The notes beneath the pieces were generated by a model. The model was given only the letters and a program-made list of their open reading frames with translations. It did no database searches and was not told where the DNA came from. A stretch of DNA of 64,000 nucleotides from an uncultured bacterium (lineage in GTDB: Bacteria; Babelota; Babeliae; Babelales; Babelaceae). Shown in pieces: positions 25,478-47,042 of the stretch; within the stretch, counting starts at the first letter, position 1, and each line of letters starts with the position of its first letter. The stretch is taken from positions 629,110 through 693,109 of the forward strand of contig OY969428.1 of assembly GCA_963699275.1 (NCBI GenBank), written 5' to 3'. A program made the translations under genes and the position numbers.

Positions 25478-25582
25478 CTAGCACACATCCTTATTATGAT
25501 TAGCAAAGACCAGAGTAAAATTATCAAATTATATCAAACCAAGACTTCTTAATTAAGCGTCTATTTTTATTCATCATTAGTA

Positions 25583-27446: not shown

Positions 27447-27642
27447 GACTTACCTTTTTTTAATGAAGTGCTTTCTCTTATTCTTCATCGGTAAATAGCC
27501 TAAAAAAGAAATTGTCACTTGGTGATAGCATCATTTATGTGGCACGGTTTTGCTTAATTAATCGGAAAAATACTTTCTCCACAGAAATAACAATGACTTA
27601 TACTATCCAAAGGCTCAATATTGCCTTTGATTTCTTTTGTTA

Positions 27643-29649: not shown

Positions 29650-31263
29650 TTACCAGGTAAATGTCACGCTGCCCATGTAGGTACCAGATTTGTAGGCATT
29701 GCGTTGGCGCACGGGACCCTGCCAGAGGATACCGATAGCGAGACAATCAAAAAGATCGTAATTGAATGCGACATTGGCAACATCAGCTTCCCACTTGCTA
29801 AAGCATTCCGTACGCTCCACATCGAATCCTGTAGCATAGTAACTGGAATTTTCTGGGATAAATGAACGACAGACCGTGATCTTATCTTGAGCGTGACTTG
29901 TAATACAGTATTCTGCCCAGAATGACAGATTATCTAAAAAGTGGTAAGCGTGTAACCCAAAATTAAAATGCCAGGTAGGTCCTGGACGAATGCTCACATC
30001 TGCAGCATAAGGAAAAATACCACTTTCTGCATAGTTAGTAGGCATGCGGAAATTACAGAAATCCTGTCTAAAAAAGTACGAGAAACCGCCGGCAAAGGTC
30101 AAATCCAGTGTATCAAGAAAATCGATCGTAAACCCGGCTATACCGCCTACATACGTGTGGCCGTTGTTTCCTATAGGTACGGCAAACGGTTTGTTAGCAT
30201 TTATTTCTTTAGAAAGCGGAATTCCCACACCCGCTTCAGCAAATGGCATGAAAACAAGACGGGGATACCGCTCATCATCTTCATTGATAAGAAAGAGGTG
30301 CCGCCAAAAGAGTGAAAGTCGCAAATCATCAAGTCCGACCTTGTGATAATTACAGATATCAAGTCCCAAAATGTCAGCAATCGGGTAAAGATTGTCCATA
30401 ATATTAGTAATTACTGCCTGCTTGCAATCAGCCGTATATCCAAGATTGAGTACTGCGTCGTCGATTGGCATGAAGGGCTGTTTTGGTACGATGCAATCGG
30501 TGGCTCCTGTTGGACTGCACGATGGTTGTGGGCAGGGAGGCACTGTTGTTGGATCAACATAAGGTGGCGCAATTCCAGGTACTGGGGTAAAGGGCAGCGG
30601 GGTTGTTGTTGTGCCGGATAGAGGGCCAACCATAGCGCTTGCAGGGCATGCAGTACCGAGCGCTTGGCACGTAAAATCATTAAATGCATGGACAGTTTGC
30701 CGAACGTCAGAAATTCCCCATCGTGCTCTTAGACCGACAGCATACCAGCATCGATCGATGAGCAAGCATTCACTTTCAAAGCGAACGCCATATTTTTTAT
30801 ATACTGTCGGAATCGAAAAAAAACCGAATTCTTGGTTTTTATCTACATACTGGGGACTGGTGACGTTTAGCAGACAATTAGAATCATCTGAAACTGTAAA
30901 GTCTGCATCGGTAAGACCCAATGCCGTAAACAGAACGGTTTTCAGGGCTGGGTCATAAAAAAGACCGCACATGTTCCAGCGTCCATTAAGGTCACCAATA
31001 TTGACGGCATCGCGTTCACTATTTGAAGCGCAGTTAGCAAATTGATGGTAAGGGCTTACGCTGATTTGGAGGCGATTTAATGCATAGGTATAATCAAAGC
31101 GCATTAAGTTTGCTTTTTGACGGGTAGCCAAATATGAATAGGGATAAACGGTACTGTAAGGCGGTAATTGATCATTGCGTGTAAGGTTTGGAAATCCATT
31201 AAGAGAACTGCTGAGACAAATAACTATTATGCCCTTATAAATCCCCTTCAGTCCCTTACGCAT
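29650..31263 (-). CDS. putative outer-membrane beta-barrel protein, cysteine-rich
   Basis: Signal-like N-terminus, alternating aromatic/hydrophobic beta-strand patterns, and a C-terminus ...GSVTFTW ending in an aromatic residue. About 20 Cys, including a PPCPQPSCSPTGATDC loop. Confidence 0.55.
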   Translation of the reverse strand: MRKGLKGIYKGIIVICLSSSLNGFPNLTRNDQLPPYSTVYPYSYLATRQKANLMRFDYTYALNRLQISVSPYHQFANCASNSERDAVNIGDLNGRWNMCGLFYDPALKTVLFTALGLTDADFTVSDDSNCLLNVTSPQYVDKNQEFGFFSIPTVYKKYGVRFESECLLIDRCWYAVGLRARWGISDVRQTVHAFNDFTCQALGTACPASAMVGPLSGTTTTPLPFTPVPGIAPPYVDPTTVPPCPQPSCSPTGATDCIVPKQPFMPIDDAVLNLGYTADCKQAVITNIMDNLYPIADILGLDICNYHKVGLDDLRLSLFWRHLFLINEDDERYPRLVFMPFAEAGVGIPLSKEINANKPFAVPIGNNGHTYVGGIAGFTIDFLDTLDLTFAGGFSYFFRQDFCNFRMPTNYAESGIFPYAADVSIRPGPTWHFNFGLHAYHFLDNLSFWAEYCITSHAQDKITVCRSFIPENSSYYATGFDVERTECFSKWEADVANVAFNYDLFDCLAIGILWQGPVRQRNAYKSGTYMGSVTFTW

Positions 31264-31402
31264 GATGCTACTATCCTTTCAATATTCTTAGCTATTCTGG
31301 TGCTCATCTATTAGAGCGATTGGTCTATGTTATAGCATTGATACTGCATTTCGTCAAATTATGCTACACTGAAACTCGCATTCATTATTGAGGAAGTTTC
31401 AT

Positions 31403-31654
31403 ATGTACTGTTCATATTACCAGGCTCGAGTCACCGAAAAGGAATCATGGTTTTTGGTTGCACTTTTGCGCAGCTTTGAACATCTTGCTTTTGATCGCAC
31501 ATATGACAAATCTACTGCGACATTTGAATTTTTTGTGCCGCATGACAATGAACGGATATTTTTGGAGCTGCTTGAGTATCTGAAAAAGCAGGGCGTGATT
31601 TTGAGTGTAACAGCGTTATCTAATAGACTCACTGATCCGAATGCTCTTGTCTAA
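31403..31654 (+). CDS. small hypothetical protein
   Basis: 83 aa from ATG 31403 with gaggaag RBS (the ORF track starts at TTG 31388). No recognised motif. Confidence 0.4.
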   Translation: MYCSYYQARVTEKESWFLVALLRSFEHLAFDRTYDKSTATFEFFVPHDNERIFLELLEYLKKQGVILSVTALSNRLTDPNALV

Positions 31655-31655: not shown

Positions 31656-33086
31656 TCATTGCGTTAAGACTGCAAGGCGTGCTTTGACTTCATCCGAGGG
31701 CAGCATAGAGAAGAGATCTTTGATGCTTGGTCCCTGAGGCTTGCCAGTAAGCGCGATGCGGACGAGAGAAAAAATATCTTTGACTGGAACAGACTGTTCT
31801 TTACACAAAGCCTGTAAATGTGTTGCTGCATCATGGGGCTGCATTTCTTCGATAGCGCTCAGCGCAGTTTTTAAAAATGACTGATAAGTTTGAAGGTGGT
31901 AGACATTGAGAAGCTCAATGCTGATCTTGGGTCTTTCAATAATGAAACTCAGCGCTTCCGGGGTATCTTTCAGCGTTACGAGCTCTTGTTGGACGTAGGC
32001 AATGAGCATGGCAAGTTTGTCATCGGGTATGTTTTCAAAGTTCGGATCTACAGCTGTTAAAAAAGGTTTGCACAGCTGTGTTAGTGCTATGGTATCATAA
32101 TGCATAATCCAGTGATGATTTACCCAGCGCAATTTTTCAAGGTCATAACGAATTTGGCCTGTTGCAGAAAGATGATCAAAATTAAACGTTTCTATAAGTT
32201 TTTTCTTATCCATGATTTCTTCTTTGACAGAATGACCAATGATAGAAAGATAATTAACTATTGCCTCAGGCAGATATCCGCTATTTTTTAGATCAGTTAA
32301 TGAAAAACCGAAATCTCGCTTTGACAGCTTTTTTCCTTCGGCATTTCCAATAATAGGCAGATGCCAGAAAACGGGTGTTTCTGCAAGAAATGCCTCATAA
32401 AGGGCAACCTGAGATGCGGTATTTGTCAAATGATCTTCTCCGCGAAATACATGAGTAATTTTCATTTCAACGTCATCAACAAAATTTGCAAATAAGAACG
32501 TGAAGCTGCCATCCTGACGCGTAAGCGGTATGTCAGAAAAGTGCCTCAGTTCAAAATGCATCGCATGATGAGCGAGGTCATAAAAAGAGACGGTTTTTGT
32601 ATCATCGAGGTGAAAACGCCAAATAAAAGGGATAGCTGCAGCCAGCTTTTCCTCAATTTGAGCATCCGTTAGCTTGAGACACGTTCTATCGTACCGCGGT
32701 GGCTGTTTCATCGCCAACTGGCGTTGTCTTCTTTTTTCAAGCTCTTCTGGCGTACAAAAGCAGCGATACACAAGGTGCTTGTCTTGGCAGATCTGTAGGT
32801 ACTTTTTGTAAAATTCAGTTCTTTGCGACTGATAATACGGTGCGTATGGACCGCCTTTAACAGGGCCTTCATCGTAATCAAGACCGAGCCAGGCAAGGTC
32901 TTGCATGATTTGATGACCCTCAGGATCTACCAATCTTTGCTGATCAGTATCTTCAATGCGCAGAATAAAGGTCCCGCTTTTTTGGCGGGCAAACAAAAAA
33001 TTTATAAGGGCTGATCGTACATTGCCTAAGTGCATGAACCCTGTTGGCGAAGGGGCAAAACGTACACGAGGCGCTGGTTTAGTCAT
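31656..33086 (-). CDS. gltX: glutamyl-tRNA synthetase
   Basis: RVRFAPSPTGFMHLGNVRSAL (HIGH), ILRIEDTD and KKLSKRD (KMSKS). Confidence 0.9.
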   Translation of the reverse strand: MTKPAPRVRFAPSPTGFMHLGNVRSALINFLFARQKSGTFILRIEDTDQQRLVDPEGHQIMQDLAWLGLDYDEGPVKGGPYAPYYQSQRTEFYKKYLQICQDKHLVYRCFCTPEELEKRRQRQLAMKQPPRYDRTCLKLTDAQIEEKLAAAIPFIWRFHLDDTKTVSFYDLAHHAMHFELRHFSDIPLTRQDGSFTFLFANFVDDVEMKITHVFRGEDHLTNTASQVALYEAFLAETPVFWHLPIIGNAEGKKLSKRDFGFSLTDLKNSGYLPEAIVNYLSIIGHSVKEEIMDKKKLIETFNFDHLSATGQIRYDLEKLRWVNHHWIMHYDTIALTQLCKPFLTAVDPNFENIPDDKLAMLIAYVQQELVTLKDTPEALSFIIERPKISIELLNVYHLQTYQSFLKTALSAIEEMQPHDAATHLQALCKEQSVPVKDIFSLVRIALTGKPQGPSIKDLFSMLPSDEVKARLAVLTQ

Positions 33087-33226
33087 AGCGGGTCTCTAGT
33101 TGTCTTTCTTGCAAATTTCAGTTTGTTTCCATTATATCATAAAAGGAAAAAAATGTACCATTTGACGAAATAGACATCAAAAAATATCTTAAGATATAAC
33201 ACTAACCATATCGTGCGAGGAACATC

Positions 33227-33727
33227 ATGAAAAAAATTCTCATTCTCGGATTATTGGCTTTTTCTTGGGGCATATACGCTGAAAACAAAGAAGAGCTTTA
33301 TAAAGAAGAACTTATGGGAGCCATAAAAGAGGGTAATGTCGAAAGCGTTACGAGAATTTTAAAGGCAGGTGACGTGCAGAAAAATCATCTGATAGAAGCT
33401 GCTCTCTTTGCTTTGGATAAAACAAGAAACGAATGTTTAATAAAAGTTCAAAATGAAGCCCAGAAGAGTGGTACTGCCCTGATGGCAGCTATGCTAGGAA
33501 TTTCAGTATATATTTTTGGAATTTGCTATGCGAATAAGATTAATTTTTATGAAAGCTTAGCGTTAGCTTTGATGCCGTCTGTGGGAACTCTATTCGCAGC
33601 GGCAATGGTTAATATATTAGAGTTAAATAAGATAACTACTCCTGACCCACATATTAATGCACTCGAGATTGCTCGACTTGTGGCACATTCAGCTCACAAA
33701 CCTGAAGAACCGTCTGAAAATAAATAA
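33227..33727 (+). CDS. P-family member 1: leader + short helical motif + 2 TM + charged tail, unknown function
   Basis: MKKILILGLLAFSWGIYA-ENKEELYKEELMGAIKEGNVESVTRILKAG..., two hydrophobic helices, then ..LEIARLVAHSAHKPEEPSENK. Confidence 0.7.
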   Translation: MKKILILGLLAFSWGIYAENKEELYKEELMGAIKEGNVESVTRILKAGDVQKNHLIEAALFALDKTRNECLIKVQNEAQKSGTALMAAMLGISVYIFGICYANKINFYESLALALMPSVGTLFAAAMVNILELNKITTPDPHINALEIARLVAHSAHKPEEPSENK

Positions 33728-33844
33728 AACATGAGTTCGATATGAGCAGATTTATTAGGAAGATTTTTCAAGATTCTTTTTTGATGAAATAGGGATCAAA
33801 AAATATCTTAGATATAACGCTAACCATATCATACGAGGAACATC

Positions 33845-34351
33845 ATGAAGAAACTTCTCATTCTTGGATTATTGGCTTTTTCTTCCAGCTTATACGCTGA
33901 AAACAACGAAGAGCTTTCTAAAGAAGAACTTATGAGAGCCATAAAAGAGGGTAATGTCGAAAGCGTTACGAGAATTTTAAAGGCGGGGATACAGAAAAGT
34001 GATCTCACCGATGCCGCACATTTTGCTCTTGATAAAATAAAAAACGAAATTGCACTAAGGGCTGCTAACGAAGAGTATAGGCTCGGATCGACCATGTTGT
34101 CGCTCATCTACATATATGGTTCTTATATGTTTTTCATTTGCCGGGCCAATCACATGCAACTGCACGAGAGCTTAGTGATGTCATTTATTCCTGCCGTTGC
34201 TGTCCCATGTCTAGGCCTTTTAGTAAAATGGTTTGGTCTAGATCAACCTACAATAGCTGATCCTCAAGTTAATACGATAGAAATTGCTCGGCTTGTGGCC
34301 CTTTCAGCGTATTCTGCGAAATCATCTGAAAAGCAAGCAGAGCAAAAATAG
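33845..34351 (+). CDS. P-family member 2
   Basis: MKKLLILGLLAFSSSLYA-ENNEELSKEELMRAIKEGNVESVTRILKAG.... The upstream 110 bp or so also duplicates the region upstream of member 1. Confidence 0.7.
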   Translation: MKKLLILGLLAFSSSLYAENNEELSKEELMRAIKEGNVESVTRILKAGIQKSDLTDAAHFALDKIKNEIALRAANEEYRLGSTMLSLIYIYGSYMFFICRANHMQLHESLVMSFIPAVAVPCLGLLVKWFGLDQPTIADPQVNTIEIARLVALSAYSAKSSEKQAEQK

Positions 34352-34474
34352 ATTACATCAAACTCTTTTTTTACCTGGCATGAAATGTTATTATAACCCA
34401 CTAAAAGATGCCGTTTGACGGAAGAGGTCGCAAAAAGTATGATACCATTAGCACTGATCTGTAAGAGGAACAAC

Positions 34475-35002
34475 GTGAAGAACTATATTATCATCGCTTT
34501 TCTAGTCCCCATTTTCACGGGTATCCTGTTTGCTGATCAAAAGCAAGAGCTTATGGATGCAATAAAAAAACGCGACATTAATCAACTTGCAAGGATTTTA
34601 TTGAAAGCAGATCTCATGCAAAAAAGTGATCTAGAGGACGCGCAGCAGTATGCTTTTGATAGACTAAAACATCCGTCAGTAGAGAGAACTCCTTTTGAAT
34701 GGTGCCAAGTTATAGGAGGCCCTACCGTGGGTTTCTGGAGTCTCTATTGGATTTTGACGAAAATGGGACGTTCAAATGGCCCGCTTGTTTGGTTACACCT
34801 GGGTGCTTTGGTTGTATCACCCTTTGTTATGCTTAATGGTTTTTTGGCGCCAATTATACGCTCGACTGCGTCAGAAGTAATTGCTGAATATGTATCAAAA
34901 GCAGCTGATATTGTACGAGAACATCCTGAAAAAGGGAAACAAAGGCTTTTGCTTGAAAAGCTTATATTTGAAGGGACCACTTTTATTAGAGGAACACCAT
35001 GA
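34475..35002 (+). CDS. P-family member 3
   Basis: GTG 34475 is preceded by aagaggaacaac, the same RBS context as members 4 and 5. VKNYIIIAFLVPIFTGILFA-DQKQELMDAIKKRDINQLARILLKAD... Confidence 0.6.
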   Translation: MKNYIIIAFLVPIFTGILFADQKQELMDAIKKRDINQLARILLKADLMQKSDLEDAQQYAFDRLKHPSVERTPFEWCQVIGGPTVGFWSLYWILTKMGRSNGPLVWLHLGALVVSPFVMLNGFLAPIIRSTASEVIAEYVSKAADIVREHPEKGKQRLLLEKLIFEGTTFIRGTP

Positions 35003-35526
35003 ACAACTATCTTCTTATTGTGTCTTTTGCTTGTGTTTTTACAAGTGCTCTGTTTGCGGATAAGAGAGATGAACTTATCAGTTCAATAAAACGGGGCGAT
35101 GTAGAAAAAGTAACAAGAATTTTAAGAAAGGCTGATCAAATTCAGAAAAATGACCTCGAGGAAGCAGCTGAATATGCTCTCGACCGAACAAAATCGCCAT
35201 CCTTATCTCGGACTGGATGGGAATGGACGAAGGCTATTGCTGGTGGTTTGTTCTTACCAACCAGTCTGCTTAGTTGGCACTGGTTCACCGGGGGACCATT
35301 TAGAGATGATTCTCCTAATTGGTTTGATGTGGGACATGCTATGTTTGCGGCTTTATGTGCGTATCTGCTTTACTCCGGGATAAGCACACCAATCAAGCGC
35401 TATGCTGGTGCGAAAGAAATTGCTCACCTGGTAGGAAATGCAGCTGAAAAAACTGGAGAAAAATCTGAAAATGCAGGCGAGCAATCAGCTCCGCGAAAAA
35501 GATTAATAATCGATGACGAAGATTGA
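34999..35526 (+). CDS. P-family member 4
   Basis: MNNYLLIVSFACVFTSALFA-DKRDELISSIKRGDVEKVTRILRKAD.... ATGA overlap with member 3. Confidence 0.7.
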   Translation: MNNYLLIVSFACVFTSALFADKRDELISSIKRGDVEKVTRILRKADQIQKNDLEEAAEYALDRTKSPSLSRTGWEWTKAIAGGLFLPTSLLSWHWFTGGPFRDDSPNWFDVGHAMFAALCAYLLYSGISTPIKRYAGAKEIAHLVGNAAEKTGEKSENAGEQSAPRKRLIIDDED

Positions 35527-35549
35527 GTCTTTATTAAAGAGGAACAACC

Positions 35550-36077
35550 ATGAATAAATATTTTCTTATTGGGTCTTTTGCTTTCACAAGTATTTTGTTT
35601 GCGGATAAGCGAGATGAACTTATCAGTGGAATAAAAAAAGGTGACGTAGAAAAAGTCACAAGAATATTAAGAAAGGCCGATCAAATCCAGAAAAATGACC
35701 TCGAGGAAGCAGCTGAATATGCTCTCGATCGAACAAAATCGCCATCCTTATCTCGGACTGGATGGGAATGGACGAAGACTATTGCTGGTGGGTTGTTCTT
35801 ATCAACCAATTTGATTAGTTGGTACGTGAGGTTCACCCACGAAGAATTCAGAAATGTCCCTTTTCCTAATTTGCATGATGGGGTGCATATTGTCTGGACA
35901 TCTTTATGGGCGTATCTGCTTTACTCCGGGATAAGTGAACCATACAAGCGCTATGCTGGTGCGAAAGAAATTGCACGCCTGGTAGGAAATGTAGCTAAAA
36001 AAACTGATCAAAAATCCCAAAATGCAGGTGAGCAACCAGCTCCACGAAAAAGATTAATAATCGATGACGAGGATTGA
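35550..36077 (+). CDS. P-family member 5 (recent duplicate of member 4)
   Basis: The first 80 aa or so and the last 45 aa or so are nearly identical to member 4 (...KNDLEEAAEYALDRTKSPSLSRTGWEWTK...; ...RKRLIIDDED). Confidence 0.7.
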   Translation: MNKYFLIGSFAFTSILFADKRDELISGIKKGDVEKVTRILRKADQIQKNDLEEAAEYALDRTKSPSLSRTGWEWTKTIAGGLFLSTNLISWYVRFTHEEFRNVPFPNLHDGVHIVWTSLWAYLLYSGISEPYKRYAGAKEIARLVGNVAKKTDQKSQNAGEQPAPRKRLIIDDED

Positions 36078-36229
36078 TTTTCATTTTATTTAAAAGAATG
36101 AAAAGCATAGCGAATACGCTTTTCAGCCCTTTTTTTATTTTAAATTTCGAAAAGATTAGTTGTATGATTTGATGAGAGAAATAACAAAAATAGTATAACG
36201 ATATATTTCTTCAAGGCATTTAAAGGAGC

Positions 36230-36682
36230 ATGATGATTAATCGTTTATTTATTGGTTTACTAGTTTTCATCTCTACAGGCTGCATTTTTGCTGATCAAGA
36301 GGATCGGCATGTGGGAGGTATAGACAAAAATGAAGACCTAATGACTGCCATAAAAAAAAGGGATGTTCGAGAAGTTAAAAGAATTTTGGCGGATGTCGAT
36401 GCTATGCAGACAAAGGATTTAGAAACTGCTTTTGAGTATGCTTCTTCCCGCATGAAACAAAGTTCACAACGTAAGTGGTGGGAATGGTTTTTGATTATAT
36501 ATTGTGGTGTACACTTATTTAAAAGAGATGGTGCTAACTACTGGCATATTTTGAATACTATTTTTGCGACGCTAGGAATGTGTTACGGGATAATCGGTCC
36601 TTTTAATCGGCAGGCAGCAGCAGAAAAAATTACTCGGCTTTTGCTGACAAAGTGCCGCGAGAAAAATGTGGAAATCCAGTAA
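36230..36682 (+). CDS. P-family member 6 (divergent)
   Basis: Leader ...FISTGCIFA-DQEDR.., DLMTAIKKRDVREVKRILADVDAMQTKDLETAFEYA, one or two TM segments, AEKITRLLL tail. Confidence 0.6.
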   Translation: MMINRLFIGLLVFISTGCIFADQEDRHVGGIDKNEDLMTAIKKRDVREVKRILADVDAMQTKDLETAFEYASSRMKQSSQRKWWEWFLIIYCGVHLFKRDGANYWHILNTIFATLGMCYGIIGPFNRQAAAEKITRLLLTKCREKNVEIQ

Positions 36683-36716
36683 AATAGTACTTCCCATAAA
36701 GAAAAATAATTCATCG

Positions 36717-37307
36717 ATGAGGAAAGATTTGAAAACCCTAACGATAATACCTATGTACTTGGTTATTTTTGGAAGTGTTAGTTTGCATGCTGACAAAGCA
36801 CAGAATGCACTCATGCGAGATGCTATTGAGACGTCTGATGTGTTAGCAGTCAGGGGACTTCTGAAAAAAGTAGAGCCTCTTAAAACCGCAGATAAGACTT
36901 CCTGGATCAAATTTGCAGATGATGTCATTGGGGAAAAAAGAGAGTTAACATCTCTTCTTAAGAGCCCACGTGATCTTATACGGTTTCTGTTTGGAGCAAC
37001 CGTTACCGTAAGCTGCACAGGACTTGCCGGCTTTTTTTTCAGACGCTACCTTAGGTGCCCGCTAAACTCGGGGGTGGACCCTGAAGAAAGAAGAACAAAT
37101 TTAGTCTATAGTGGTCTTTCTGCAGGTGTAGTAATACTGGGTGTTATCGCAATGGTCAAGGGTTGGTATTGTGATACTGCATATGCCAATGTAAAACTTG
37201 CTCGCCTAGCGAAAGAAGCTATCGAAAAAGCTCTTGTGGAAGGAGCTACTGGTACTCCTCAGTTAGCACAAAAAGATATTCGATCTTCAGACAAAAAAGA
37301 TCAGTGA
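36717..37307 (+). CDS. P-family member 7 (most divergent)
   Basis: MRKDLKTLTIIPMYLVIFGSVSLHA-DKAQNALMRDAIETSDVLAVRGLLKK.., two TM segments, VKLARLAKEAIEKAL tail. Confidence 0.55.
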   Translation: MRKDLKTLTIIPMYLVIFGSVSLHADKAQNALMRDAIETSDVLAVRGLLKKVEPLKTADKTSWIKFADDVIGEKRELTSLLKSPRDLIRFLFGATVTVSCTGLAGFFFRRYLRCPLNSGVDPEERRTNLVYSGLSAGVVILGVIAMVKGWYCDTAYANVKLARLAKEAIEKALVEGATGTPQLAQKDIRSSDKKDQ

Positions 37308-37412
37308 TTTTTTTTCTTATTGACAAATTGCTCAATTAGAATATGCTAGGAGCCTAGGTACCTATGTGGTCCTGTTTTGTTATATATCAGTAGTTATACA
37401 TTCGAGGTTTTC

Positions 37413-38302
37413 ATGAAAAACATTATAGTAAAGATTTTGTTTTCTGCTCTCGTGTTACTTCCCTCAGTGAAGGCGATGCAGCAGTCACAAACTTCAGCAA
37501 ATAGTCGCAGACAACGGCGCAATCGTCTGATCAGCAAAACAATGCAGTATTGCAGCAAATGCTTGTTGCTTCTATGGATCAGTCCCACATGCAAGCTATT
37601 TTAACGAGTATGGCTGAGATATCGAAGGCGATTCTTGCTCGTATTGAGAAAGAAAAACAGGAAGAATTGGCAAAGGCCAATGAAAAATATCAAGCGGCAT
37701 TTGTGTGCGCGTTTCAGAACAGTGAGTCGACGCAAGAGGAAAAAGAGATTGCCTTGGAATATATAGCATTTTCCGCTCGCTTAATACCGGCAATAGCTGA
37801 TTATTATGCGAAGAAAGCTACTTTAGAGAAAGTGGCTGAAGAAGTACAATGGCGTGCTATTTCTGCCTTACAATGGCAGATTTCAAAAGTTGATCTGCCT
37901 GGGGAATGTTGTGTAGCTCCGTATCGTGAAATGACCCATGAAGACTATCTCAAAGAGCGTATAAGATGTGAGAAAATTTTGGCTTCTCGACCGACTGCTG
38001 ATGACGTTGGAATAGCGGCACTGTGTTGGATTGCGAATGAAGGAAATTGGGCAACTCAGCAAAAAAAGGATGCCGCTACAAACCTGCAGGCCGCAAATGC
38101 GACGATCGAAGCGACAGTTCTCTCGCCTCAAATGGCAGCTCTGAAAGCACAATATACAAAAAGAAAGCGCATGTTAACTTCCTATTTAGGCAGTTATTTC
38201 TTTTCTCAAGAAACGCGTTCGCAAGCAGCTTTAGAGTTTTACGAAATAAGTAAGGCAGAAAAAAAGCTCGCCCAATCACAGAGTCAGCCGGCTGCTCAAT
38301 AA
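37413..38302 (+). pseudogene. Q-family member 1 (exported coiled-coil protein) with a frame break after the leader
   Basis: The leader MKNIIVKILFSALVLLPSVKA-MQQSQTSAN.. (frame of ORF 37377..37604) runs into a stop. The homologous body (..NNAVLQQMLVASMDQSHMQAILTSMAEISKAILARIEKEK..) is in the -1 frame (ORF 37550..38302), which is closed by TAG just upstream of about 37505. Confidence 0.65.
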
Positions 38303-38367
38303 CTAATTTGTATTTACAAAGAATTCTTAATCAAATGACAAAAATACTCAGATACTATGAGGTTCTT

Positions 38368-39498
38368 ATGAAAAACATTTCAATCAAGATCATCTTGCTT
38401 GGTCTTGCATTCAGTACTTCAACAAAAGCAATGCAATCATCATCACAAGCTTCAGCTGACTCCATGACTGCGGAGCATACGACAACTACTGAAAACTTAG
38501 TTGGAGCATTTAATGCTCAAATAAACGCACTAACAGAACGATTTCATTCGGAAAAAAGATTCTTGGAAGCTGCGCAAGGGGACGAACGTGTGGCACGATT
38601 GGCCTTTATTCAAACTTTACAAACGGAGCTTAGTGATCTTGTCGATAGACGTGATGCACAACGAGCGGCTGGCGCAGGTCTGCGGCCTTCAAATGGACAG
38701 GCAGCGCAATCTTCTACCCAGCCTCAAGAAACGGTACAAAACGCTCTCTTAGCTTCTATGCAAAAATCACAGGTGCATGGAAGAATTTTAGAATGTATGG
38801 CTGAGTTAGCTAAGAAAATTGTTGCTCGCTTTTCGAAAGAAAGGGATGCAGAAATGGAAAAGGCTAGAATGCAAAATGAACAAGCTCTGCAAGTTCTTAA
38901 AAACAGTGAGTCGACGCCAGAGCAAAAAGAACTTGCTATTGAGCAGATAGAGTTTTTAGGGCGTTTGATGCCTGCGATAGCTGATTACTATGCAAAAGCT
39001 GCAGCCTTAGATAATATATTTACTGAAGTTCGCTGGCGAACGATTTCAGGTCTCCAGCGCGCAGCAGCTGAGGCTGGTCAGCCACCGAAACAATGTGTGG
39101 GTGGTTCTGAAACAGTTATGACCCATGAGGATTATTTAAGTTCACGTGCTAGATATGAAAAAATTCTTGATGATCTTCAGGCATCTGATCTACTTAAACA
39201 GGACACCATTTTATCCTGGTATTGGACTGAAAAGAGATGGGAAGGGCAGCAAAGAAAAAATGCTGCTAACGAAGTGAAAGCCAATAATGCTGCAACCGAG
39301 AAAACAGAAACACCGGTTCTTACTCAAGTAGCAAGCCAAAAAGCTGAATATATGAAGAAGCAGCATACTCTAGCTCTTTATATAGGCTGTTATTTCTTTA
39401 CTGAGGAAGTACGTGTGAAAGCGGCTTTGGATTTCTATCAGATTGAAAAAGAAATAAGACGACTTGTGCATCCAAGTACTCAGTCAGCTTCGCATTAA
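38368..39498 (+). CDS. Q-family member 2
   Basis: MKNISIKIILLGLAFSTSTKA-MQSSS... Shared blocks ILECMAELAKKIVARFSKERDAEMEKA, NSESTPEQKELAIEQIEFLGRLMPAIADYYAK and AALDFYQIEKE. Confidence 0.7.
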   Translation: MKNISIKIILLGLAFSTSTKAMQSSSQASADSMTAEHTTTTENLVGAFNAQINALTERFHSEKRFLEAAQGDERVARLAFIQTLQTELSDLVDRRDAQRAAGAGLRPSNGQAAQSSTQPQETVQNALLASMQKSQVHGRILECMAELAKKIVARFSKERDAEMEKARMQNEQALQVLKNSESTPEQKELAIEQIEFLGRLMPAIADYYAKAAALDNIFTEVRWRTISGLQRAAAEAGQPPKQCVGGSETVMTHEDYLSSRARYEKILDDLQASDLLKQDTILSWYWTEKRWEGQQRKNAANEVKANNAATEKTETPVLTQVASQKAEYMKKQHTLALYIGCYFFTEEVRVKAALDFYQIEKEIRRLVHPSTQSASH

Positions 39499-39513
39499 TT
39501 AATTTTTTAGAGG

Positions 39514-39558
39514 GCTCTCTTGGATATTATCAAGATATTTCCAAGAGAGCTCTTTTTT
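39514..39558 (+). terminator. rho-independent terminator
   Basis: An 11-bp perfect stem gctctcttgga / tccaagagagc (39514-39524 / 39540-39550), then tctttttt. Confidence 0.7.
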
Positions 39559-39624
39559 GTTTAAATTAGTTTTGAATCTTAGAGGATTCCATCTTTAGAA
39601 GGCTTTTATAAAACGGAGGTTTTT

Positions 39625-40473
39625 ATGAATATTTCGCAGAGAGCAGTAGTTATGTGCTTGCTTGTTACTTTATTTTCTTCGGTAATGGCGATGCAGCAAG
39701 AGGAACGTAATATTCAGTGCTATGAACAAATTCTAACCAGACTGCCTCCTTCTCAAAAAATGTTACACATTATGGCGCGTATAGCCGAAGCGATTTTTGC
39801 TCGCGCTGAGAAAGAAAGGCGAGCAGAGATGCTTAAAGTGCGAACAGAGTTGGACAGTGCTTTGAAGGTTCTTCGAAGCAGCCTATCATCACAACAGGAA
39901 AAAGAACAGGCAAGCGAGACGGTTGAATTTTTAAATAGACTTTCAGGTGAGATCTCGGTCCATTTTGCAAAAAAGACCGCAACTCAGGCTGTGCTTGAAG
40001 AGGCTTCGGGCAGGGCTCTTTTTGCCCTAAATGATGCCGTTGAAAGAGTAAGTGCTGATGAGCCTCATGACGACACCCCGCGGGAAGAATTTAAATTAGG
40101 ACATTATCAAGATGATCTGAATCGAGCGCTTAGTATTCTTAATGATGCAGAGAGTCCTCTTAAAGAAAAACGGAATGTTGCGAGGGTATGGTATTTCAAT
40201 GAGCTTCGTTGGGCAGAGCAACAAAGCAAGAAGAACACAGAAAAAGCACAGCAAGATGCGCCAGTAGCTCAGATAGACAATAAAAAAGTTCCGATCCTCT
40301 CGCCAGAACAAGCAGCGCAGAAAGCCGAATATGAAAAAACAAAGCGTATCGCAGTGAAGTATATACACTGTAATTATTTTAGTGAAGACGTGCGCTATCA
40401 AGCAGCGCTTGATTTCTATCTTGCAGACAAAGCCGAAAAAGATCTTACAGCTTTTCAGTCCACCACATCCTAA
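39625..40473 (+). CDS. Q-family member 3
   Basis: MNISQRAVVMCLLVTLFSSVMA-MQQEE... Shared blocks MARIAEAIFARAEKERRAEMLK, SSQQEKEQASETVEFLNRL and AALDFYLADKAEKDL. Confidence 0.7.
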   Translation: MNISQRAVVMCLLVTLFSSVMAMQQEERNIQCYEQILTRLPPSQKMLHIMARIAEAIFARAEKERRAEMLKVRTELDSALKVLRSSLSSQQEKEQASETVEFLNRLSGEISVHFAKKTATQAVLEEASGRALFALNDAVERVSADEPHDDTPREEFKLGHYQDDLNRALSILNDAESPLKEKRNVARVWYFNELRWAEQQSKKNTEKAQQDAPVAQIDNKKVPILSPEQAAQKAEYEKTKRIAVKYIHCNYFSEDVRYQAALDFYLADKAEKDLTAFQSTTS

Positions 40474-40498
40474 TTTTATTAAAACCAATCTGTGGAGA

Positions 40499-40531
40499 GC
40501 TTCTTGGAATATCCAAGAGGCTTTCTCTTTT
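40499..40531 (+). terminator. rho-independent terminator (homologous to the one at 39514)
   Basis: Stem gcttcttgga / tccaagaggc with one G-U pair, followed by tttctctttt. Confidence 0.55.
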
Positions 40532-40625
40532 GGCACCATTTGCGCTTACCTGTAATAGAGAGTAATCTAGTACTATCTCTTTTTTTAAGAGTACACTATT
40601 TGGGAATGTGATTCGGGGGAACACC

Positions 40626-42137
40626 ATGAATATAAGTCAGAAATCAGTTCTGGCTTTCGTAACGTTTATGCCACTTCTGCTCAATGCAGCAGGAGAGGCA
40701 TTCTTGGAAGGCCGCATTCGTACGGCAATTGCGGAACGTCAATCGAGAATTAATAGTCCAATTTCAGGCGAGCGGGTTGCGCAAAGAGCCATTGAACAGC
40801 GACTGAGATCTCCAGAAGAGTGCATACGTGAAGCTGTCGAATTGCGCGAGACAATCAGGTTTGCCCATGAAATTGCTCATGATCCTGCAAACAATCCACA
40901 AGCTCTTATCGCCTCAGTGAATGCTGAGCAGGCAGAATATGAGCGCAGAGAGCGTGAGGAACTTGAAGCATCAATTAAATGGAGAAATACCCTTCTTACC
41001 CCATTCGAAATTAATGGCTATACGGTGCCTGTTGGATTTTATAAGAGAGATCTTATAGAATTACCCATTTATGGGGTCCAATTGTATGCACGTAAGCTTC
41101 TTAGAACATCGCTTAAACAACGCCGTGAAGAAACTATCATTAAGCATATTACTGAAGGCGCATATAATTCGCTCATCGAAATTCTCGAATCGGTAAAGAA
41201 AGCCGAAGAAAAATATGAGCTTGAGTATGAAGAAAAAAGTGCGCTTGGAAAGTTATTTACTGTTGATTCACGCGCACGAGATGTTCTTTTGAATCCTATA
41301 CGTGAGTACCTTTACGAGAACCACTATCTTATCGGTTATCTGCCCATTAATACCATGGTTTTATTTCCGTTACTCTCATGCTGGCTTTTTGATAAGACGA
41401 GCTCCTGGCTTGAATCGACGCTCTTAGAGAAGGATTATGATGAGATTTTTCGCAGGGGTGGGGTTCAAGCTTTGAACATGGAATATCTTGAAGCCTTTCA
41501 ACCAAATGCTGAAGGGCAACTAATAAAGGCTGAAAAGACGCCATTTACACTAACAACGAGCTTGCGATTTTGCGAATGGCTGTTATCTTTTTCGTATTTT
41601 CATAAGCTGCCAAGCACCATGAATTTACGAGTATTTTTATTATGGCTTTGGGGTATTCCAGCGCCTCTTTTTAATGACGCAAAAATTTTCAAGACTATGA
41701 GTCAGCTCGCAGGAGTAAAGTTACCTGATGCATTCTACTCGAAGCCGGTTGAGTTGGCTATCGAATATTTAGGTTATGGATTTTCCGCGAAACTTTTTGA
41801 TAGACAATGCGGTGAAACGTGGACGAAATACGTTTTGGAGAACCGTGAAAAATTTCTCACACGCTTAAAAAATTATAAACGTGCAGTAGAGCAACTTGAT
41901 AATGCTGAGGTCGCTGTTAAAGAAGCTGAGCGAAAATTGAGAAAATTTGTGGAAAATGGCCACCGCATGAATTCATGGTTGCCGGGTGCTGAGGCAAGGC
42001 AGTGGTGGAAGTCGGAATCTCGTGGATCCACTACAATAACGAATGCGGTCAGCCTTGGCTTGACGGGTATAATGGCATATAAGTTGGCCCGATGGTATTG
42101 GAATATAACGCATCCGCGAGCTGAGCATCCAGCTTAA
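40626..42137 (+). CDS. large exported/membrane protein, unknown function
   Basis: Start is taken at MNISQKSVLAFVTFMPLLLNA (same MNISQ leader type as Q3). A charged helical region is followed by several hydrophobic segments and a C-terminal TM segment (AVSLGLTGIMAYKLARWYW). Confidence 0.6.
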   Translation: MNISQKSVLAFVTFMPLLLNAAGEAFLEGRIRTAIAERQSRINSPISGERVAQRAIEQRLRSPEECIREAVELRETIRFAHEIAHDPANNPQALIASVNAEQAEYERREREELEASIKWRNTLLTPFEINGYTVPVGFYKRDLIELPIYGVQLYARKLLRTSLKQRREETIIKHITEGAYNSLIEILESVKKAEEKYELEYEEKSALGKLFTVDSRARDVLLNPIREYLYENHYLIGYLPINTMVLFPLLSCWLFDKTSSWLESTLLEKDYDEIFRRGGVQALNMEYLEAFQPNAEGQLIKAEKTPFTLTTSLRFCEWLLSFSYFHKLPSTMNLRVFLLWLWGIPAPLFNDAKIFKTMSQLAGVKLPDAFYSKPVELAIEYLGYGFSAKLFDRQCGETWTKYVLENREKFLTRLKNYKRAVEQLDNAEVAVKEAERKLRKFVENGHRMNSWLPGAEARQWWKSESRGSTTITNAVSLGLTGIMAYKLARWYWNITHPRAEHPA

Positions 42138-42169
42138 TGTCAAGACAAAAACCTTAGAGGAGAACCTAT

Positions 42170-43840
42170 ATGATGGATAAAATAGTTACAAGAGGTCTAA
42201 AGGCGGTATTCTATCTATCCTTTTTACAGGGGGCTGTGCAGCTTTACTCTATGGAGGCGGCTCGAGGAGCACTTCCAGGAGCAGCTAACCCGAATGATCC
42301 TAATCGACCGCAGGTTGGGGAACACATTGCACAAGTTTATAACGTAGTCGAGCCAGCCATTCGGAACAACATAAATGCGATGGTTCTTGGTGAGCGTGAA
42401 GCATTGCAAAATGCACTTGATGCTGTGAATATCTCCTTAGCTAATGCTCGTGGAGTGGAACGAGAGAGATTATTAGCACGACGTGCTCAATTGGAAGATC
42501 AGCTTTTTGCCGTTGCAAGGCGACACGGAGGTCTTTTGGAGAATGCCCATCAAGCTGCTGTAAATATCGGAGCAGAATATGCTAGGTTCATTTTGGATAG
42601 AGGGAGAGAAGAATTTTCACGGCAAACGCAGTTTGGTAATACAGCTATTAACGCTCGTGAAAATCGTGCTGGAATGGTGCAAGCAAGCAGAGATCGTTTT
42701 GCCGATATTACTAATTGGGTTCGAGGTAATCCGAAATATATTTTGGGCATGACTGCAGGACTGACCATAGCAAGCTATGGTACCTATAAAGGGCTGCAGA
42801 TTGCGGCACATCGTTTTGAAAAGGAAACCCCACGTCTTGCGCAAGAAACATCGCTCCTTTCTACTAAAGAACAGATGCTTAATTGGTTAACGGGTAAACC
42901 ACAAAAAGAAGCAAATATAAAAGATGTGATTTTGCCTGAGGAAGATGAAAGGCGCGTGGAGGAGATCGTTGCAGCAATGCAATACTCCGTTCAAAATGGT
43001 GCCTATCTTAAAAATGGACTTTTCTGGGGACCTCCAGGAACTGGTAAAACTTTCTTGCTTGAAAGAATTGCTCGTAGTAGTGGCATGGATTATCTCTTAG
43101 TTGCAGGTCCCGATGCATTTGCCTATAGTGTGGAAGAAGGAATTATAGAGTGGAATAAAGTATTTGATCGAGCTGAAAACCATCCTAGACCAGTTATGAT
43201 TGTTATCGACGAATGCGAAGTTATCTTAGGTGACAGAAAAGACCCTGCCAATCAATCTGATAAGAAGCAGGCTTACCTCAATTTAATTTTAACGCGTTTT
43301 GGAACAGAAAATCGTAAACGCTGCGTGTTTGCTATCTGTAACCTTCCTGAGCGCCTTGATGAAGCATTTTTAAGCCGGTGCGATATTCAGATGTATGTAG
43401 GAGTCCCAGCGGTTCCTCAGCGTAAGCAGTTAATTAAGAAATATTTCACGAAATATCTTATTAAAGCAGAACACTTGGTGCATGAGGTTGTGGCCACAGT
43501 TACTGGATTCTTTAACAATCTTTTCTCATCGCCACCACCGCCTCCTACGCCACTTAAGTTCGAACAAGGCTTACTCAAAGATAATGAGATGAGTCCTCAG
43601 TTGATTGATGAAATCAGCGACAAACTTGAAGGACATGACTTTGTGGGACGTGATATTTCAAAGATGATGTTAATGATAGAAAGTACCGCGCACTCAACGA
43701 AGGACTCGATGGTTACTCGAGCTATTATTGATCGCGTGATAAAGACCAAGATTCACGAGAAACGTGTTGCTCGAGAAGGCTTTAAACGGGCACCATCGCA
43801 GGCAGATAAGAAGCCAACGCAGACATCTGCCGCAGCATAA
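42170..43840 (+). CDS. membrane-anchored AAA+ ATPase with ATAD3-like architecture
   Basis: N-terminal leader ..AVQLYS-MEAARG, then a helical region and a TM segment (YILGMTAGLTIASYGTY). Next come ETPRLAQETS, Walker A GLFWGPPGTGKTF, SGMDYLLVAGPD, Walker B VMIVIDECE, and the ..ICNLPERLDEAFLSRCD.. block. Confidence 0.75.
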   Translation: MMDKIVTRGLKAVFYLSFLQGAVQLYSMEAARGALPGAANPNDPNRPQVGEHIAQVYNVVEPAIRNNINAMVLGEREALQNALDAVNISLANARGVERERLLARRAQLEDQLFAVARRHGGLLENAHQAAVNIGAEYARFILDRGREEFSRQTQFGNTAINARENRAGMVQASRDRFADITNWVRGNPKYILGMTAGLTIASYGTYKGLQIAAHRFEKETPRLAQETSLLSTKEQMLNWLTGKPQKEANIKDVILPEEDERRVEEIVAAMQYSVQNGAYLKNGLFWGPPGTGKTFLLERIARSSGMDYLLVAGPDAFAYSVEEGIIEWNKVFDRAENHPRPVMIVIDECEVILGDRKDPANQSDKKQAYLNLILTRFGTENRKRCVFAICNLPERLDEAFLSRCDIQMYVGVPAVPQRKQLIKKYFTKYLIKAEHLVHEVVATVTGFFNNLFSSPPPPPTPLKFEQGLLKDNEMSPQLIDEISDKLEGHDFVGRDISKMMLMIESTAHSTKDSMVTRAIIDRVIKTKIHEKRVAREGFKRAPSQADKKPTQTSAAA

Positions 43841-43870
43841 CAATGTTCTCTGTAGTAGAGTGAGCATCCA

Positions 43871-43910
43871 GAACATGCCGTTCCCAAGAAGGAGCGGCAT
43901 GTTCTTCTCT
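43871..43910 (+). terminator. rho-independent terminator closing the 33.2-43.8 kb cluster
   Basis: A 10-bp perfect stem gaacatgccg / cggcatgttc (43871-43880 / 43895-43904), followed by ttctctt. Confidence 0.6.
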
Positions 43911-44123: not shown

Positions 44124-44402
44124 ATGAATAAGTGTTTAAAAATTACGCTTACTATCGAGATTAAAGAGGGCTTTTTGCAGAATATTATTCAGCAACAAGC
44201 ACGCAAGAATAATCTTGAAGGTATAGTGCAGCCACTTGGTTCTGATAAAGTCAAAATTATTGTCTGTGGAGAAAAAGAGCAGGTCGATTCTTTTGTCGAC
44301 TCGATTCATCGCGAGGCAACAGGCTCTGCAATTAAAGAAATCGAAATTGAACCGCATGTCAGAGATAAGGACTATCGCGGTGTCTTCCGTGTCATTGAAT
44401 AA
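44124..44402 (+). CDS. acylphosphatase-fold protein with degenerate active-site motifs
   Basis: The 92 aa from ATG 44124 are collinear by eye with acylphosphatases (VKIIVCGEKEQVDSFVDSI; AIKEIEIEP; FRVIE). IKEGFLQNI replaces the GRVQGVGFR phosphate loop. Confidence 0.45.
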   Translation: MNKCLKITLTIEIKEGFLQNIIQQQARKNNLEGIVQPLGSDKVKIIVCGEKEQVDSFVDSIHREATGSAIKEIEIEPHVRDKDYRGVFRVIE

Positions 44403-44477: not shown

Positions 44478-47042
44478 ATGCATATTCTTAGTAAATTAAC
44501 TCTTATTTTAACGCTTTTTTCGTGCGGACTTTATGCGGATGTCCCGTGGACCTTTACTAAAATACGGGGCAAGGGATCATTTTTTTCTAAAGAACGCTAT
44601 CTCCAGCACTATCTTATTGAGCCTGGGGATCGTTTTGATCTTTCTAAGCATAAGCTTTCTTTAACCAAAATGGTGGATGTGATGAAAGCAGAAGGGTACC
44701 TCAAAGCACGCATTACCGATGAAATAAATTATGATAAGGCGAGCAAAACTGTTTCTGTCGCGGTTAGATTTGAGCCTGGGTCACGTTATATTATTGATTC
44801 AGTTCAAGTTAAACTAGATCAGTATCCTGAACTACGTAATGAGCTGCAGAAAAAAGCAGAGAAGACGCTCGCGCATGCCATTGCAGAAAAGGATCGCATT
44901 GCTGCTGCAACAGATGAGATGACAAAGTATCTTGCTAAAAAGGGATATGCTGGTGCAACGATACAGTCGCATCTGGCGATTATAGAAGATAAGAAAAATC
45001 GAGCAACTCTTTCTTTTGTAGTGACACTAGTCGAGAAAAAGGAATATCTCTTTACCGGAAATTCTTTTTTTACGAGTGATCAACTGCTTGATGAAATTCT
45101 TTTAGTGCAAGAACAGGGACTTTCTTTGCCGGACTCATTGATTGCAGAAGATATTGAAGCTCTGTATAGGGCAAAAGGATTTTTAGCTGCTCATGTGGAT
45201 GTGAATGAAAAACCGGGTATAGTTACCTTTCTCATTCATGAGGGTGAGCGATATAAAGTCGGAACCGTAAGCAAAGCACTAACGGGAGATCACCCTGCAG
45301 ATCTATCGGTAAAAGAGATTGTAAAAAAATTGAAGCATGATCTTGAAAGCCTTCCGGTTTTTGATCAGGAGCAGATCGATGAGCGGCGTTTTCAAGCAGC
45401 CCAGGAGCTTACTCGCCTGGGGTACTGGGATGCTCATATTGAGGTGCAGATGAAGCCGATTAGAGCTAAAAAACAAGATATCGTGCTTGATATTCATCTG
45501 GGTAATAAACGAATGATACAAAATATCATCATTGTGGATCATCCAGAATTTCTCAAAGAAGGGCTCTTTAAGCGATGGGTCTGTTTAAAAGTTCCCCAAT
45601 CTATCAGTCCTCAAGAGATTGACGAGCAGAGGCGATGGCTTCAAAAAACATTTGCTAAGCGTGGATACCTCAATGCGAAAATTGCCTACGACATTCAGAT
45701 ACTCCCCTCAGGCTCGACTTTAGAATGGAAGATCGATATATCACAAGGGCCAGTTCGATTTGGCCGAACGGTTATTGCTGGCCTTAAAAAAATGAAACCC
45801 TATATTGTTGAACGAGAGCTTCGGTACCACGAAGGCGAAGTCTGGAGTAGGGAGAAAATAGACGAAAGCATAAAGCGGTTGCGCGATTTATGCATGTTTG
45901 AAACGATTTCCATTACACCGCTGTCTGAAGAGCCGGCAAATAGTCAGTTTCAGCCCGTGCTTATTAAATGCATAGAGGATGATCCGTTTGAAATAAGAAC
46001 ACGACTTGGATTTCAGTTTGTGAGCAAGAGTTTTACGCATGTATCGTGGTCAACCTTTCGACTTGGTGGATCTTTTCTTTGGAAGAATCCGGCCGGTATT
46101 GCCGATCGTCTGACCCTTGATGCAGATTTAAGCTGGTATACCCGTAATCTTGCCATCGGTTATGAAGTACCGTGGATTGGATCGTTACCGGTGAGGACAC
46201 TGTTCAGAGTGTATAGTGATCAGTATGATCAGCCGCTTATTTCGAGTAAGCAGCGGCTTTATAAAGAATCGCATGATGGTGTTAGTGTCTCTTTCAAACA
46301 CAGTCATCCCTGGTGGCATGGCTGCTTTAAATTTGGTATAGAGCTTGATAAGCTCTCATGTATTGCTCCCGAGCTTGCTCATGTGATCGATTTTGAGCCG
46401 ACATTGGTAAATCATCGGACTCCCTATCTCTATTTTGAGCCGATCGTCACGTTTGAACATTTTGATAATAAGGTTGATCCGTGCAAAGGATTTTCAACGA
46501 TTATTGCATTGAAAGCGATGGTCCCACCTGGGGTCAGAGATGGGTGGTTTATTAAAGCAGTTTTTGAACAGTCTTTTTATTATCCTCTCTATCGCTCATT
46601 GATTGGTGCGGTGCGCTGGAGAGTGGGACATATATTCAATCCGCAGTTTAATACCATCTTGCCAACTGAGCGGTTTTATTTGGGTGGCTGTTCTACCTTG
46701 CGTGGTTATGAGCCAAATATGGTTCCACCGCTTAATGATCTTGTCTGTGATAACTGCCGCATTTTCGTGCCTGTTGGTGGTAAATCGATGGCTAATATTA
46801 ATACTGAGTTACGGTTCCCTTTGTATCAACGACTGAGCGGGGTAGTATTTACTGATATGGGCGCACTTGCCCAAGATAAATTTGCAGATATTAAAGCACG
46901 GTGGGTGGGCGCAACTGGATTTGGGGTACGCTTTGCTACGCCGGTCGGACCTGTCCGTTTTGATATTGGGTGGAAATGGAAAAAGCGTAATCCTGAAGAT
47001 AAGAGATATGCATGGTTCCTTACGCTCGGTCATGCCTTTTAA
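44478..47042 (+). CDS. bamA: Omp85-family outer-membrane protein assembly factor
   Basis: Signal peptide and repeated POTRA-like modules. The C-terminal barrel has GGCSTLRGYE, NTELRFPL and GATGFGVRFATPVGPVRFDIGWKW, and ends ..LTLGHAF. Confidence 0.88.
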   Translation: MHILSKLTLILTLFSCGLYADVPWTFTKIRGKGSFFSKERYLQHYLIEPGDRFDLSKHKLSLTKMVDVMKAEGYLKARITDEINYDKASKTVSVAVRFEPGSRYIIDSVQVKLDQYPELRNELQKKAEKTLAHAIAEKDRIAAATDEMTKYLAKKGYAGATIQSHLAIIEDKKNRATLSFVVTLVEKKEYLFTGNSFFTSDQLLDEILLVQEQGLSLPDSLIAEDIEALYRAKGFLAAHVDVNEKPGIVTFLIHEGERYKVGTVSKALTGDHPADLSVKEIVKKLKHDLESLPVFDQEQIDERRFQAAQELTRLGYWDAHIEVQMKPIRAKKQDIVLDIHLGNKRMIQNIIIVDHPEFLKEGLFKRWVCLKVPQSISPQEIDEQRRWLQKTFAKRGYLNAKIAYDIQILPSGSTLEWKIDISQGPVRFGRTVIAGLKKMKPYIVERELRYHEGEVWSREKIDESIKRLRDLCMFETISITPLSEEPANSQFQPVLIKCIEDDPFEIRTRLGFQFVSKSFTHVSWSTFRLGGSFLWKNPAGIADRLTLDADLSWYTRNLAIGYEVPWIGSLPVRTLFRVYSDQYDQPLISSKQRLYKESHDGVSVSFKHSHPWWHGCFKFGIELDKLSCIAPELAHVIDFEPTLVNHRTPYLYFEPIVTFEHFDNKVDPCKGFSTIIALKAMVPPGVRDGWFIKAVFEQSFYYPLYRSLIGAVRWRVGHIFNPQFNTILPTERFYLGGCSTLRGYEPNMVPPLNDLVCDNCRIFVPVGGKSMANINTELRFPLYQRLSGVVFTDMGALAQDKFADIKARWVGATGFGVRFATPVGPVRFDIGWKWKKRNPEDKRYAWFLTLGHAF

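Follow-up and report, generated by a model that had tools for sequence, protein, structure and literature searches.

What common task, if any, might unite twelve consecutive genes that end with the gene of a membrane-anchored AAA+ ATPase? The question was raised by a 64-kb stretch of DNA from an uncultured bacterium of the Babelaceae (contig OY969428.1, positions 629,110 to 693,109), which is called the window throughout and in which open reading frames (ORFs) were listed with their starts, leaders, and ribosome-binding sites. Between positions 33227 and 43840, a sequence-only reading of this DNA had described twelve ORFs on the plus strand, namely seven members of a family P, three members of a family Q, a membrane protein (M509), and the ATPase, and all twelve were present as described. 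It had further stated that none of these genes has a recognizable housekeeping function. The other products matched no family above threshold, whereas the ATPase can be assigned to a known family: as judged from its sequence, it is a bacterial homologue of eukaryotic ATAD3. Comparison of related loci revealed that the conserved unit consists of P, M509, and the ATAD3-like ATPase.

The ATPase begins with a leader and a helical N-terminal region, which are followed by a glycine-rich membrane segment (approximately residues 189-212), the motif PRLAQETS (residues 221-228), and the AAA domain. Walker A occupies residues 287-294 (G287-T294), and D347/E348, N391, and R403 represent Walker B, the sensor-1 asparagine, and the arginine finger, respectively. 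Approximately 20 relatives of 500-570 residues were found, with 31-40% identity in best local alignments. Walker A, Walker B, the sensor-1 asparagine, and one arginine finger were invariant in the 20-member family alignment. The names of the family members were uninformative save for an automatic label of the Joint Genome Institute, ATAD3A/B, on two of them. A profile built from 20 family members and run over 1.84 billion representative proteins retrieved the family itself first and then proteins combining ATAD3_N with an AAA domain at E values of 1e-79 to 1e-74. The matches to these proteins spanned profile positions 39-516, i.e. nearly the whole profile, and two of them were plant proteins from Solanum and Macleaya. 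Alignment of the family with a six-member ATAD3 set by hhalign yielded a probability of 100% (E 6e-72, 356 columns) and extended from about 40 residues before the glycine-rich membrane segment to the helical domain at the C terminus, taking in the juxtamembrane linker and the AAA domain. The motif PxL[A/V]xETS, located approximately 66-70 residues before Walker A, is common to the family and ATAD3, and the same spacing was seen in the ATAD3_N-positive proteins P0127, P0140, and P0160. Neither the M41 protease domain (PF01434) nor Bcs1_N was present in the window ATPase according to Pfam. The working of the ATPase may be likened to that of ATAD3, with one Pfam-defined feature missing that is considered below. 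At one related locus (L005, 9277-9882), a 201-residue ORF lies between the genes for M509 and the ATPase (P0010); it resembles by eye the leader and helical region of that ATPase, which suggests a tandem partial duplication of the N-terminal part of the ATPase as a stand-alone gene.

It had been proposed to ask in relatives whether the ATPase and the membrane protein are always linked to P or Q arrays. The window and ten further loci encoding members of the ATPase family (L001-L006 and L087-L090) were compared using hidden Markov models (HMMs) for P, Q, M509, and the ATPase. The pair itself was linked throughout: in 11 of 11 loci, the gene directly before that of the ATPase encodes a homologue of M509. 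In nine of the 11 loci, the exceptions being L002 and L090, the pair directly adjoins P-like genes (1 to 7 copies), and Q was seen in the window alone, the HMM scan of the other ten loci having revealed none. The P-like genes are located upstream in the window (seven copies), L005 (five and one broken copy), L004 (three), L087, and L088 (one each) and downstream in L001, L003, L089, and, weakly, L006. As to the wider surroundings, the order gltX, M509-AAA pair, acylphosphatase, bamA recurs in L002-L005, L087, and L088. In L001, L006, and L089, the pair occurs in a ruvB/ftsW...uvrA/mutS neighborhood, and a P-like gene still adjoins it. L090 represents a third context, so that at least three contexts are found among the 11 loci. 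The presence of P-like genes beside the pair in different neighborhoods argues for a real functional link among P, M509, and the ATPase. The TopA protein of the window shares 69-80% identity with the TopA proteins encoded on the contigs of L002-L005 and 65-69% identity with proteins named as belonging to a 'Candidatus Babeliaceae' or 'Candidatus Dependentiae' bacterium. In L002, a Mito_carr gene (12541-13602, minus strand) was noted between the acylphosphatase and Omp85 genes, representing another eukaryote-type membrane protein in the lineage.

Scans of all twelve products against Pfam and of seven (P1, P4, P7, Q2, Q3, M509, and the ATPase) against NCBIfam returned only the AAA domain above threshold, and no secretion-system component was detected in the cluster. 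Searches of P, Q, and M509 against Pfam, NCBIfam, and, as profiles, PDB sequences yielded no significant match, and M509 and P had no match in any library searched. M509 is a largely helical protein that starts with a leader and carries a conserved hydrophobic segment in its C-terminal part. Its homologues across the loci show pairwise identities of 23-26% (E 1e-18), and no relation to the AAA ATPase was detected with hhalign.

The P proteins are represented by P1, in which the two hydrophobic segments cover residues 81-103 and 110-133. Identity to P1 ranges from 25 to 52% among the first six P proteins and amounts to 16% for P7. The latter is nevertheless the window copy closest to the P-like genes of the related loci, with which it has the motif GWYCDTAY..VKLAR in common. 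The profile of the window P proteins matched the P-like genes of L004 and L005 with a probability of 98.6% (E 6e-16) and revealed no eighth copy within the 64 kb of the window. When the P profile was used in a word-indexed search, the P proteins themselves and one L005 copy were returned and nothing else. For the head of P, ankyrin-like hints below threshold were obtained (Ank_5, E 0.09; ankyrin proteins, E 0.05-0.5). The AlphaFold2 (AF2) model of P1 is all-helical and found no match in the PDB at E <= 0.001 with Foldseek. The array of seven copies is a tandem amplification specific to the lineage.

The Q proteins are mutually 36-45% identical. A further Q copy was not found in the 64-kb window with the Q profile, nor were Q relatives in metagenome scans, and hhalign revealed no relation of Q to M509 or to the N terminus of the AAA ATPase. 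Q is an orphan, lineage-specific family of three copies inserted between the P array and the M509-AAA pair. Leaders were judged from hydropathy and by eye as lysine or arginine followed by a hydrophobic stretch. A leader had been ascribed to all twelve products. On this hydropathy and visual reading, a pattern consistent with a Sec signal peptide was present in frame in 11 of them, and Q1 has its leader out of frame with the body. The leader ORF of Q1 (37413-37604) has a GAGG site of its own, the body ORF runs from 37505 to 38302, and the frame of the body is closed by a TAG at 37502-37504; the junction contains no homopolymer. Because the leader is out of frame and the TAG closes the frame of the body, Q1 is either a very recent frameshift pseudogene or the product of a sequencing or assembly error. 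The ratio of nonsynonymous to synonymous substitution rates (dN/dS) between Q1 and Q2 is still 0.29. Among the paralogues of P and Q, dN/dS values were 0.23-0.51, and GAGG-type ribosome-binding sites lie at the expected distance 5' of the starts, except for the ATG of P7 at 36717; on these grounds the twelve ORFs look like real genes.

Taken as a single transcription unit, the cluster did not hold together. The three hairpin terminators of the sequence-only reading were all found in place and were strong by computed energies and z-scores, and those after Q2 and Q3, which it had taken to suggest several transcripts (39514 and 40499), agree with the long gaps between genes in this respect. Gaps of 105-152 nucleotides occur at five junctions, and tight spacing is confined to P3-P4-P5, P6-P7, Q1-Q2, and M509-AAA. 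Because two strong internal terminators and these gaps split the region, the twelve genes do not form one operon. The genes for M509 and the ATPase are separated by 32 nucleotides and, by their arrangement, are predicted to be co-transcribed as a two-gene operon of their own. A weak AT-rich hairpin with a U-run after P5 (36099-36135, plus strand; -10.9 kcal/mol, z -2.3) may be a leaky terminator splitting the P array. The promoter-like region proposed upstream of 33227 found no support, since 24 sigma-70-like sites were counted and 25.5 were expected from shuffles.

Table 1. Positions in the window of the twelve genes, the terminators, and the flanking genes.
Feature	Position	Strand	Remarks
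gltX (glutamyl-tRNA synthetase), left flank	31656..33086	-	PF00749, E 1e-79; same flank in L002-L005, L087, L088
P1, 166 aa	33227..33727	+	N-terminal leader, helical head, two hydrophobic segments
P2, 168 aa	33845..34351	+	52% identical to P1; dN/dS versus P1, 0.39
P3, 175 aa	34475..35002	+	probable GTG start after AGAGGAACA; overlaps start of P4 by 4 nt
P4, 175 aa	34999..35526	+	79% identical to P5; dN/dS 0.51
P5, 175 aa	35550..36077	+	recent tandem duplicate of P4
P6, 150 aa	36230..36682	+	P family member
P7	36666..37307	+	213 aa from ATG 36666; 196 aa from leader ATG 36717
Q1	37413..38302	+	leader ATG 37413 and body (from 37505) in different frames
Q2, 376 aa from leader ATG	38368..39498	+	leader-bearing, helical; no Pfam or NCBIfam match
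Terminator after Q2	39509..39555	+	intrinsic, hairpin and U-run; -25.5 kcal/mol, z -5.7
Q3, 282 aa	39625..40473	+	leader-bearing, helical; no Pfam match
Terminator after Q3	40494..40526	+	hairpin and UUUU; -23.5 kcal/mol, z -3.6
M509	40608/40626..42137	+	503 aa from ATG 40626 (509 from 40608)
ATAD3-like AAA+ ATPase, 556 aa	42170..43840	+	PF00004, E 1e-20
Terminator after ATPase gene	43870..43905	+	strong hairpin, weak U tract; -27.0 kcal/mol, z -6.8
Acylphosphatase, right flank	44127..44402	+	same flank in L002-L005, L087, L088
bamA/Omp85, right flank	44478..47042	+	Omp85/POTRA; same flank in L002-L005, L087, L088

The flanking genes had been named as gltX and bamA. Both identifications were borne out, although bamA does not follow the ATPase directly, the acylphosphatase gene standing between them. 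The G+C content of the window is approximately 41%, and an RNase P RNA of bacterial class A is encoded at 5252-5586 (plus strand, 236 bits). Beside gltX, a protein of 537 residues without a family match is encoded at 29650-31263 (minus strand); its C-terminal ...VTFTW resembles an outer-membrane beta-signal. An ORF of 88 residues lies between its gene and gltX (31388-31654, plus strand). ORFs of similar sizes and without a family match (522-612 and 83-84 residues) are found at these places in L002-L005 and L088 as well, and in L087 the 83-residue ORF is accompanied by one that is cut short by the end of the contig. A wider conserved neighborhood of unknown envelope genes is thereby suggested.

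Dependentiae are known as obligate intracellular parasites of protists. Three tandem ankyrin-repeat proteins of 450-490 residues (24005-28995, minus strand), an ankyrin protein of 743 residues (53628-55859, plus strand), and a protein combining ankyrin repeats with a RING finger (60681-62507, minus strand), which resembles a eukaryote-type E3 ligase, are encoded elsewhere in the window. By their domains, these proteins appear to be the effector-like content typical of an intracellular bacterium. Together with the G+C content and the 1.73-Mb length of the source contig, they are in keeping with a member of the Dependentiae.

On balance, we lean toward the module being an inner-membrane-anchored, periplasm-facing complex that organizes the envelope or its membranes rather than an export machine. 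All of the components would enter the Sec pathway via their N-terminal leaders. The helical N-terminal region of the ATPase, about 170 residues long, would lie in the periplasm, its single glycine-rich helix would serve as the inner-membrane anchor, and the AAA ring would face the cytoplasm; such a topology would be the bacterial equivalent of that of ATAD3. M509 would contribute a large helical domain to the periplasm, held by the C-terminal anchor, and the P proteins would be membrane-embedded hairpins with a small periplasmic head that act as interchangeable adaptors or clients. Cytoplasmic ATP hydrolysis would remodel or maintain a periplasm-spanning scaffold for envelope or membrane organization, and no dedicated secretion channel would be driven by the ATPase. 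Export, membrane remodeling, and host interaction had been named side by side in the sequence-only reading. Because the ATPase is ATAD3-like, membrane remodeling or organization is favored over export, for which the Pfam and NCBIfam scans of the cluster revealed no known secretion component.

Several observations weigh against such an envelope-organizing complex. PF12037 (ATAD3_N) was absent from the matches of the window ATPase at E values up to 5 and, at the same limit, was not among the 25 Pfam families most often matched by the 20 family members; it was also absent from the precomputed Pfam annotation of the members. Because the N-terminal region has no ATAD3_N match, what lies in the periplasm may function in another way than in ATAD3. 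The analogy with ATAD3 predicts location better than activity. The middle segments of P4-P6 are only weakly hydrophobic, the AF2 model of P1 is of moderate quality (predicted local distance difference test (pLDDT) 65.8), and a single-sequence AF2 model of M509 reached a pLDDT of only 38. Two of the 11 loci have no P beside the pair, and the side on which P is found varies. Finally, P, Q, and M509-AAA are set apart in the window by terminators or long gaps, so that co-regulation is not implied.

The same genes might instead serve export, P and Q being cargo or effectors for the protist host and the ATPase and M509 powering their export or unfolding. This would fit the in-frame leaders on 11 of the 12 products, a window rich in eukaryote-like ankyrin and RING proteins in a lineage parasitic in protists, and the multi-copy, fast-diverging, and lineage-variable character of P and Q, as is typical of host-interaction genes; AAA+ ATPases of the classic clade are, moreover, often protein translocases. 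We nevertheless consider it improbable. Besides the lack of any known secretion-system component in the scans of the cluster, the P proteins, with their internal hydrophobic hairpins, have the appearance of proteins that reside in the membrane and not of soluble cargo. Q is nowhere conserved with the ATPase, terminators separate the two, the closest relatives, ATAD3, are not known exporters, and the equivalent of pore loop 1, as read from the alignment, has no canonical aromatic-hydrophobic-glycine motif. This degenerate pore loop and the absence of a protease domain and of Bcs1_N also speak against an ATPase that acts in quality control or membrane insertion like FtsH, Msp1/ATAD1, or Bcs1, with M509 as an adaptor and P as substrates or regulators. 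The classic-clade AAA domain, whose best PDB sequence matches were CDC48, AFG2, and FtsH, is compatible with such a role, as are the predicted membrane anchor with a cytoplasmic ring and the tight linkage to small membrane proteins. The similarity to ATAD3 is far stronger, however, and reaches outside the AAA domain, and we give the quality control role only a small chance of being correct.

A functional link might also be lacking altogether, the P and Q arrays having accumulated at a permissive site between gltX and an unrelated M509-AAA operon and the gene order reflecting shared ancestry. The separate transcripts of the arrays, the absence of P beside the pair in L002 and L090, the variable copy number and position of P, and the origin of all loci from one phylum with partly conserved synteny are in line with this explanation. 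Against it, P-like genes still adjoin the pair, now on its opposite side, where the neighborhood is the unrelated ruvB/ftsW...uvrA/mutS one (L001, L006, and L089), a pattern that would not be expected from inherited gene order alone. The lack of a functional link seems unlikely to us.

For Dependentiae, an envelope-organizing complex of P, M509, and the ATPase would amount to a conserved, wholly unannotated envelope module next to bamA. It is conceivable, though rather doubtful, that Dependentiae carry a prokaryotic ATAD3 machine that spans the envelope with M509 and P as its dedicated partners. Eukaryotic ATAD3 would then have its source in bacteria, or else the machine would have been acquired from protist hosts in ancient times. 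In the event of acquisition, exchange of the N terminus for a Sec leader would have redirected the protein to the inner membrane of the bacterium. Were the proposal true, it would in either case provide, for the first time, a set of partners with genetic linkage to an ATAD3-type ATPase and a simpler system in which to study the role of ATAD3 at double-membrane contact sites. The membrane anchor, the juxtamembrane motif, and the ATPase are all retained in the bacterial family, and M509 and P are partners by genome context, which eukaryotic genomes cannot supply. The module could in this way help to explain how ATAD3 works, its mechanism and evolutionary origin being unclear, and it raises the concrete question of whether genes have passed between obligate intracellular bacteria and the protists that they inhabit. 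In animals, ATAD3 is an essential protein, and it is found mutated in severe neurological and mitochondrial disease. In the literature on ATAD3 together with Dependentiae or with Chlamydia, no paper describing a bacterial ATAD3 homologue was found.

Among known systems, chlamydial Inc proteins, which have a bilobed hydrophobic domain, resemble the P proteins in that both are small, belong to intracellular bacteria, have two hydrophobic segments close to each other, and are encoded in paralogous arrays. The P proteins differ from them in carrying a Sec-type leader and in having no similarity to any Pfam family, and the cluster showed no sign of a type III secretion context. Their assignment as Inc-like proteins of a chlamydial host was rejected because TopA places the genome in the Dependentiae/Babeliales, i.e. 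the host is not a chlamydia. FtsH, Bcs1, and Msp1/ATAD1 are, like the window ATPase, membrane-anchored single-ring AAA+ proteins with a cytoplasmic or matrix ATPase domain. Their similarity to it is confined to the AAA domain (E 1e-14 to 1e-28), and the M41 protease domain and the Bcs1_N domain distinguish FtsH and Bcs1, respectively, from the window ATPase.

Closer to the window ATPase stands a second ATAD3-like subfamily in Dependentiae/Babeliales with a PTLVRESS-type motif, represented by P0122 ('AAA family ATPase [Candidatus Babeliales bacterium]') and by L007 from a Babeliales metagenome-assembled genome (MAG). Its members come from the same phylum, have approximately 500-540 residues, and carry the motif at the same position, but they scored 305 bits against the family profile as compared with 580-755 bits for the window family. 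L007 and L008 (a Dependentiae MAG) were the sole informative loci among the genome-contig matches listed, the rest being mostly generic AAA proteins; unlike the window locus, neither has M509 or P-like neighbors. The LVRESS motif is nearer to the eukaryotic LVRETS, and a related protein of 657 residues (P0164) was noted in a Campylobacterota MAG.

The closest counterpart is ATAD3 itself, which is found in animals, plants, and protists and is absent from yeast (PMC3790746) and which combines coiled coils in the intermembrane space with an inner-membrane anchor and a matrix ATPase (PMC10419812). ATAD3A/B (PF12037 plus PF00004) and the window ATPase are alike in the helical N-terminal region, the glycine-rich membrane segment, the PxL[V/A]xETS motif, the classic AAA domain, and the C-terminal helical lid, and probably also in their topology relative to a double-membrane envelope. 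The window ATPase is 27% identical to plant ATAD3 over 291 residues, reads LAQETS where ATAD3 has LVRETS, and starts with a Sec-type leader where ATAD3 has its own N terminus. Moreover, it is bacterial and, unlike ATAD3, is encoded together with the dedicated partner genes for M509 and P. Thus, the ATPase is of a known kind, and what is new is its bacterial setting, its Sec-type N terminus, and its conserved partner genes.

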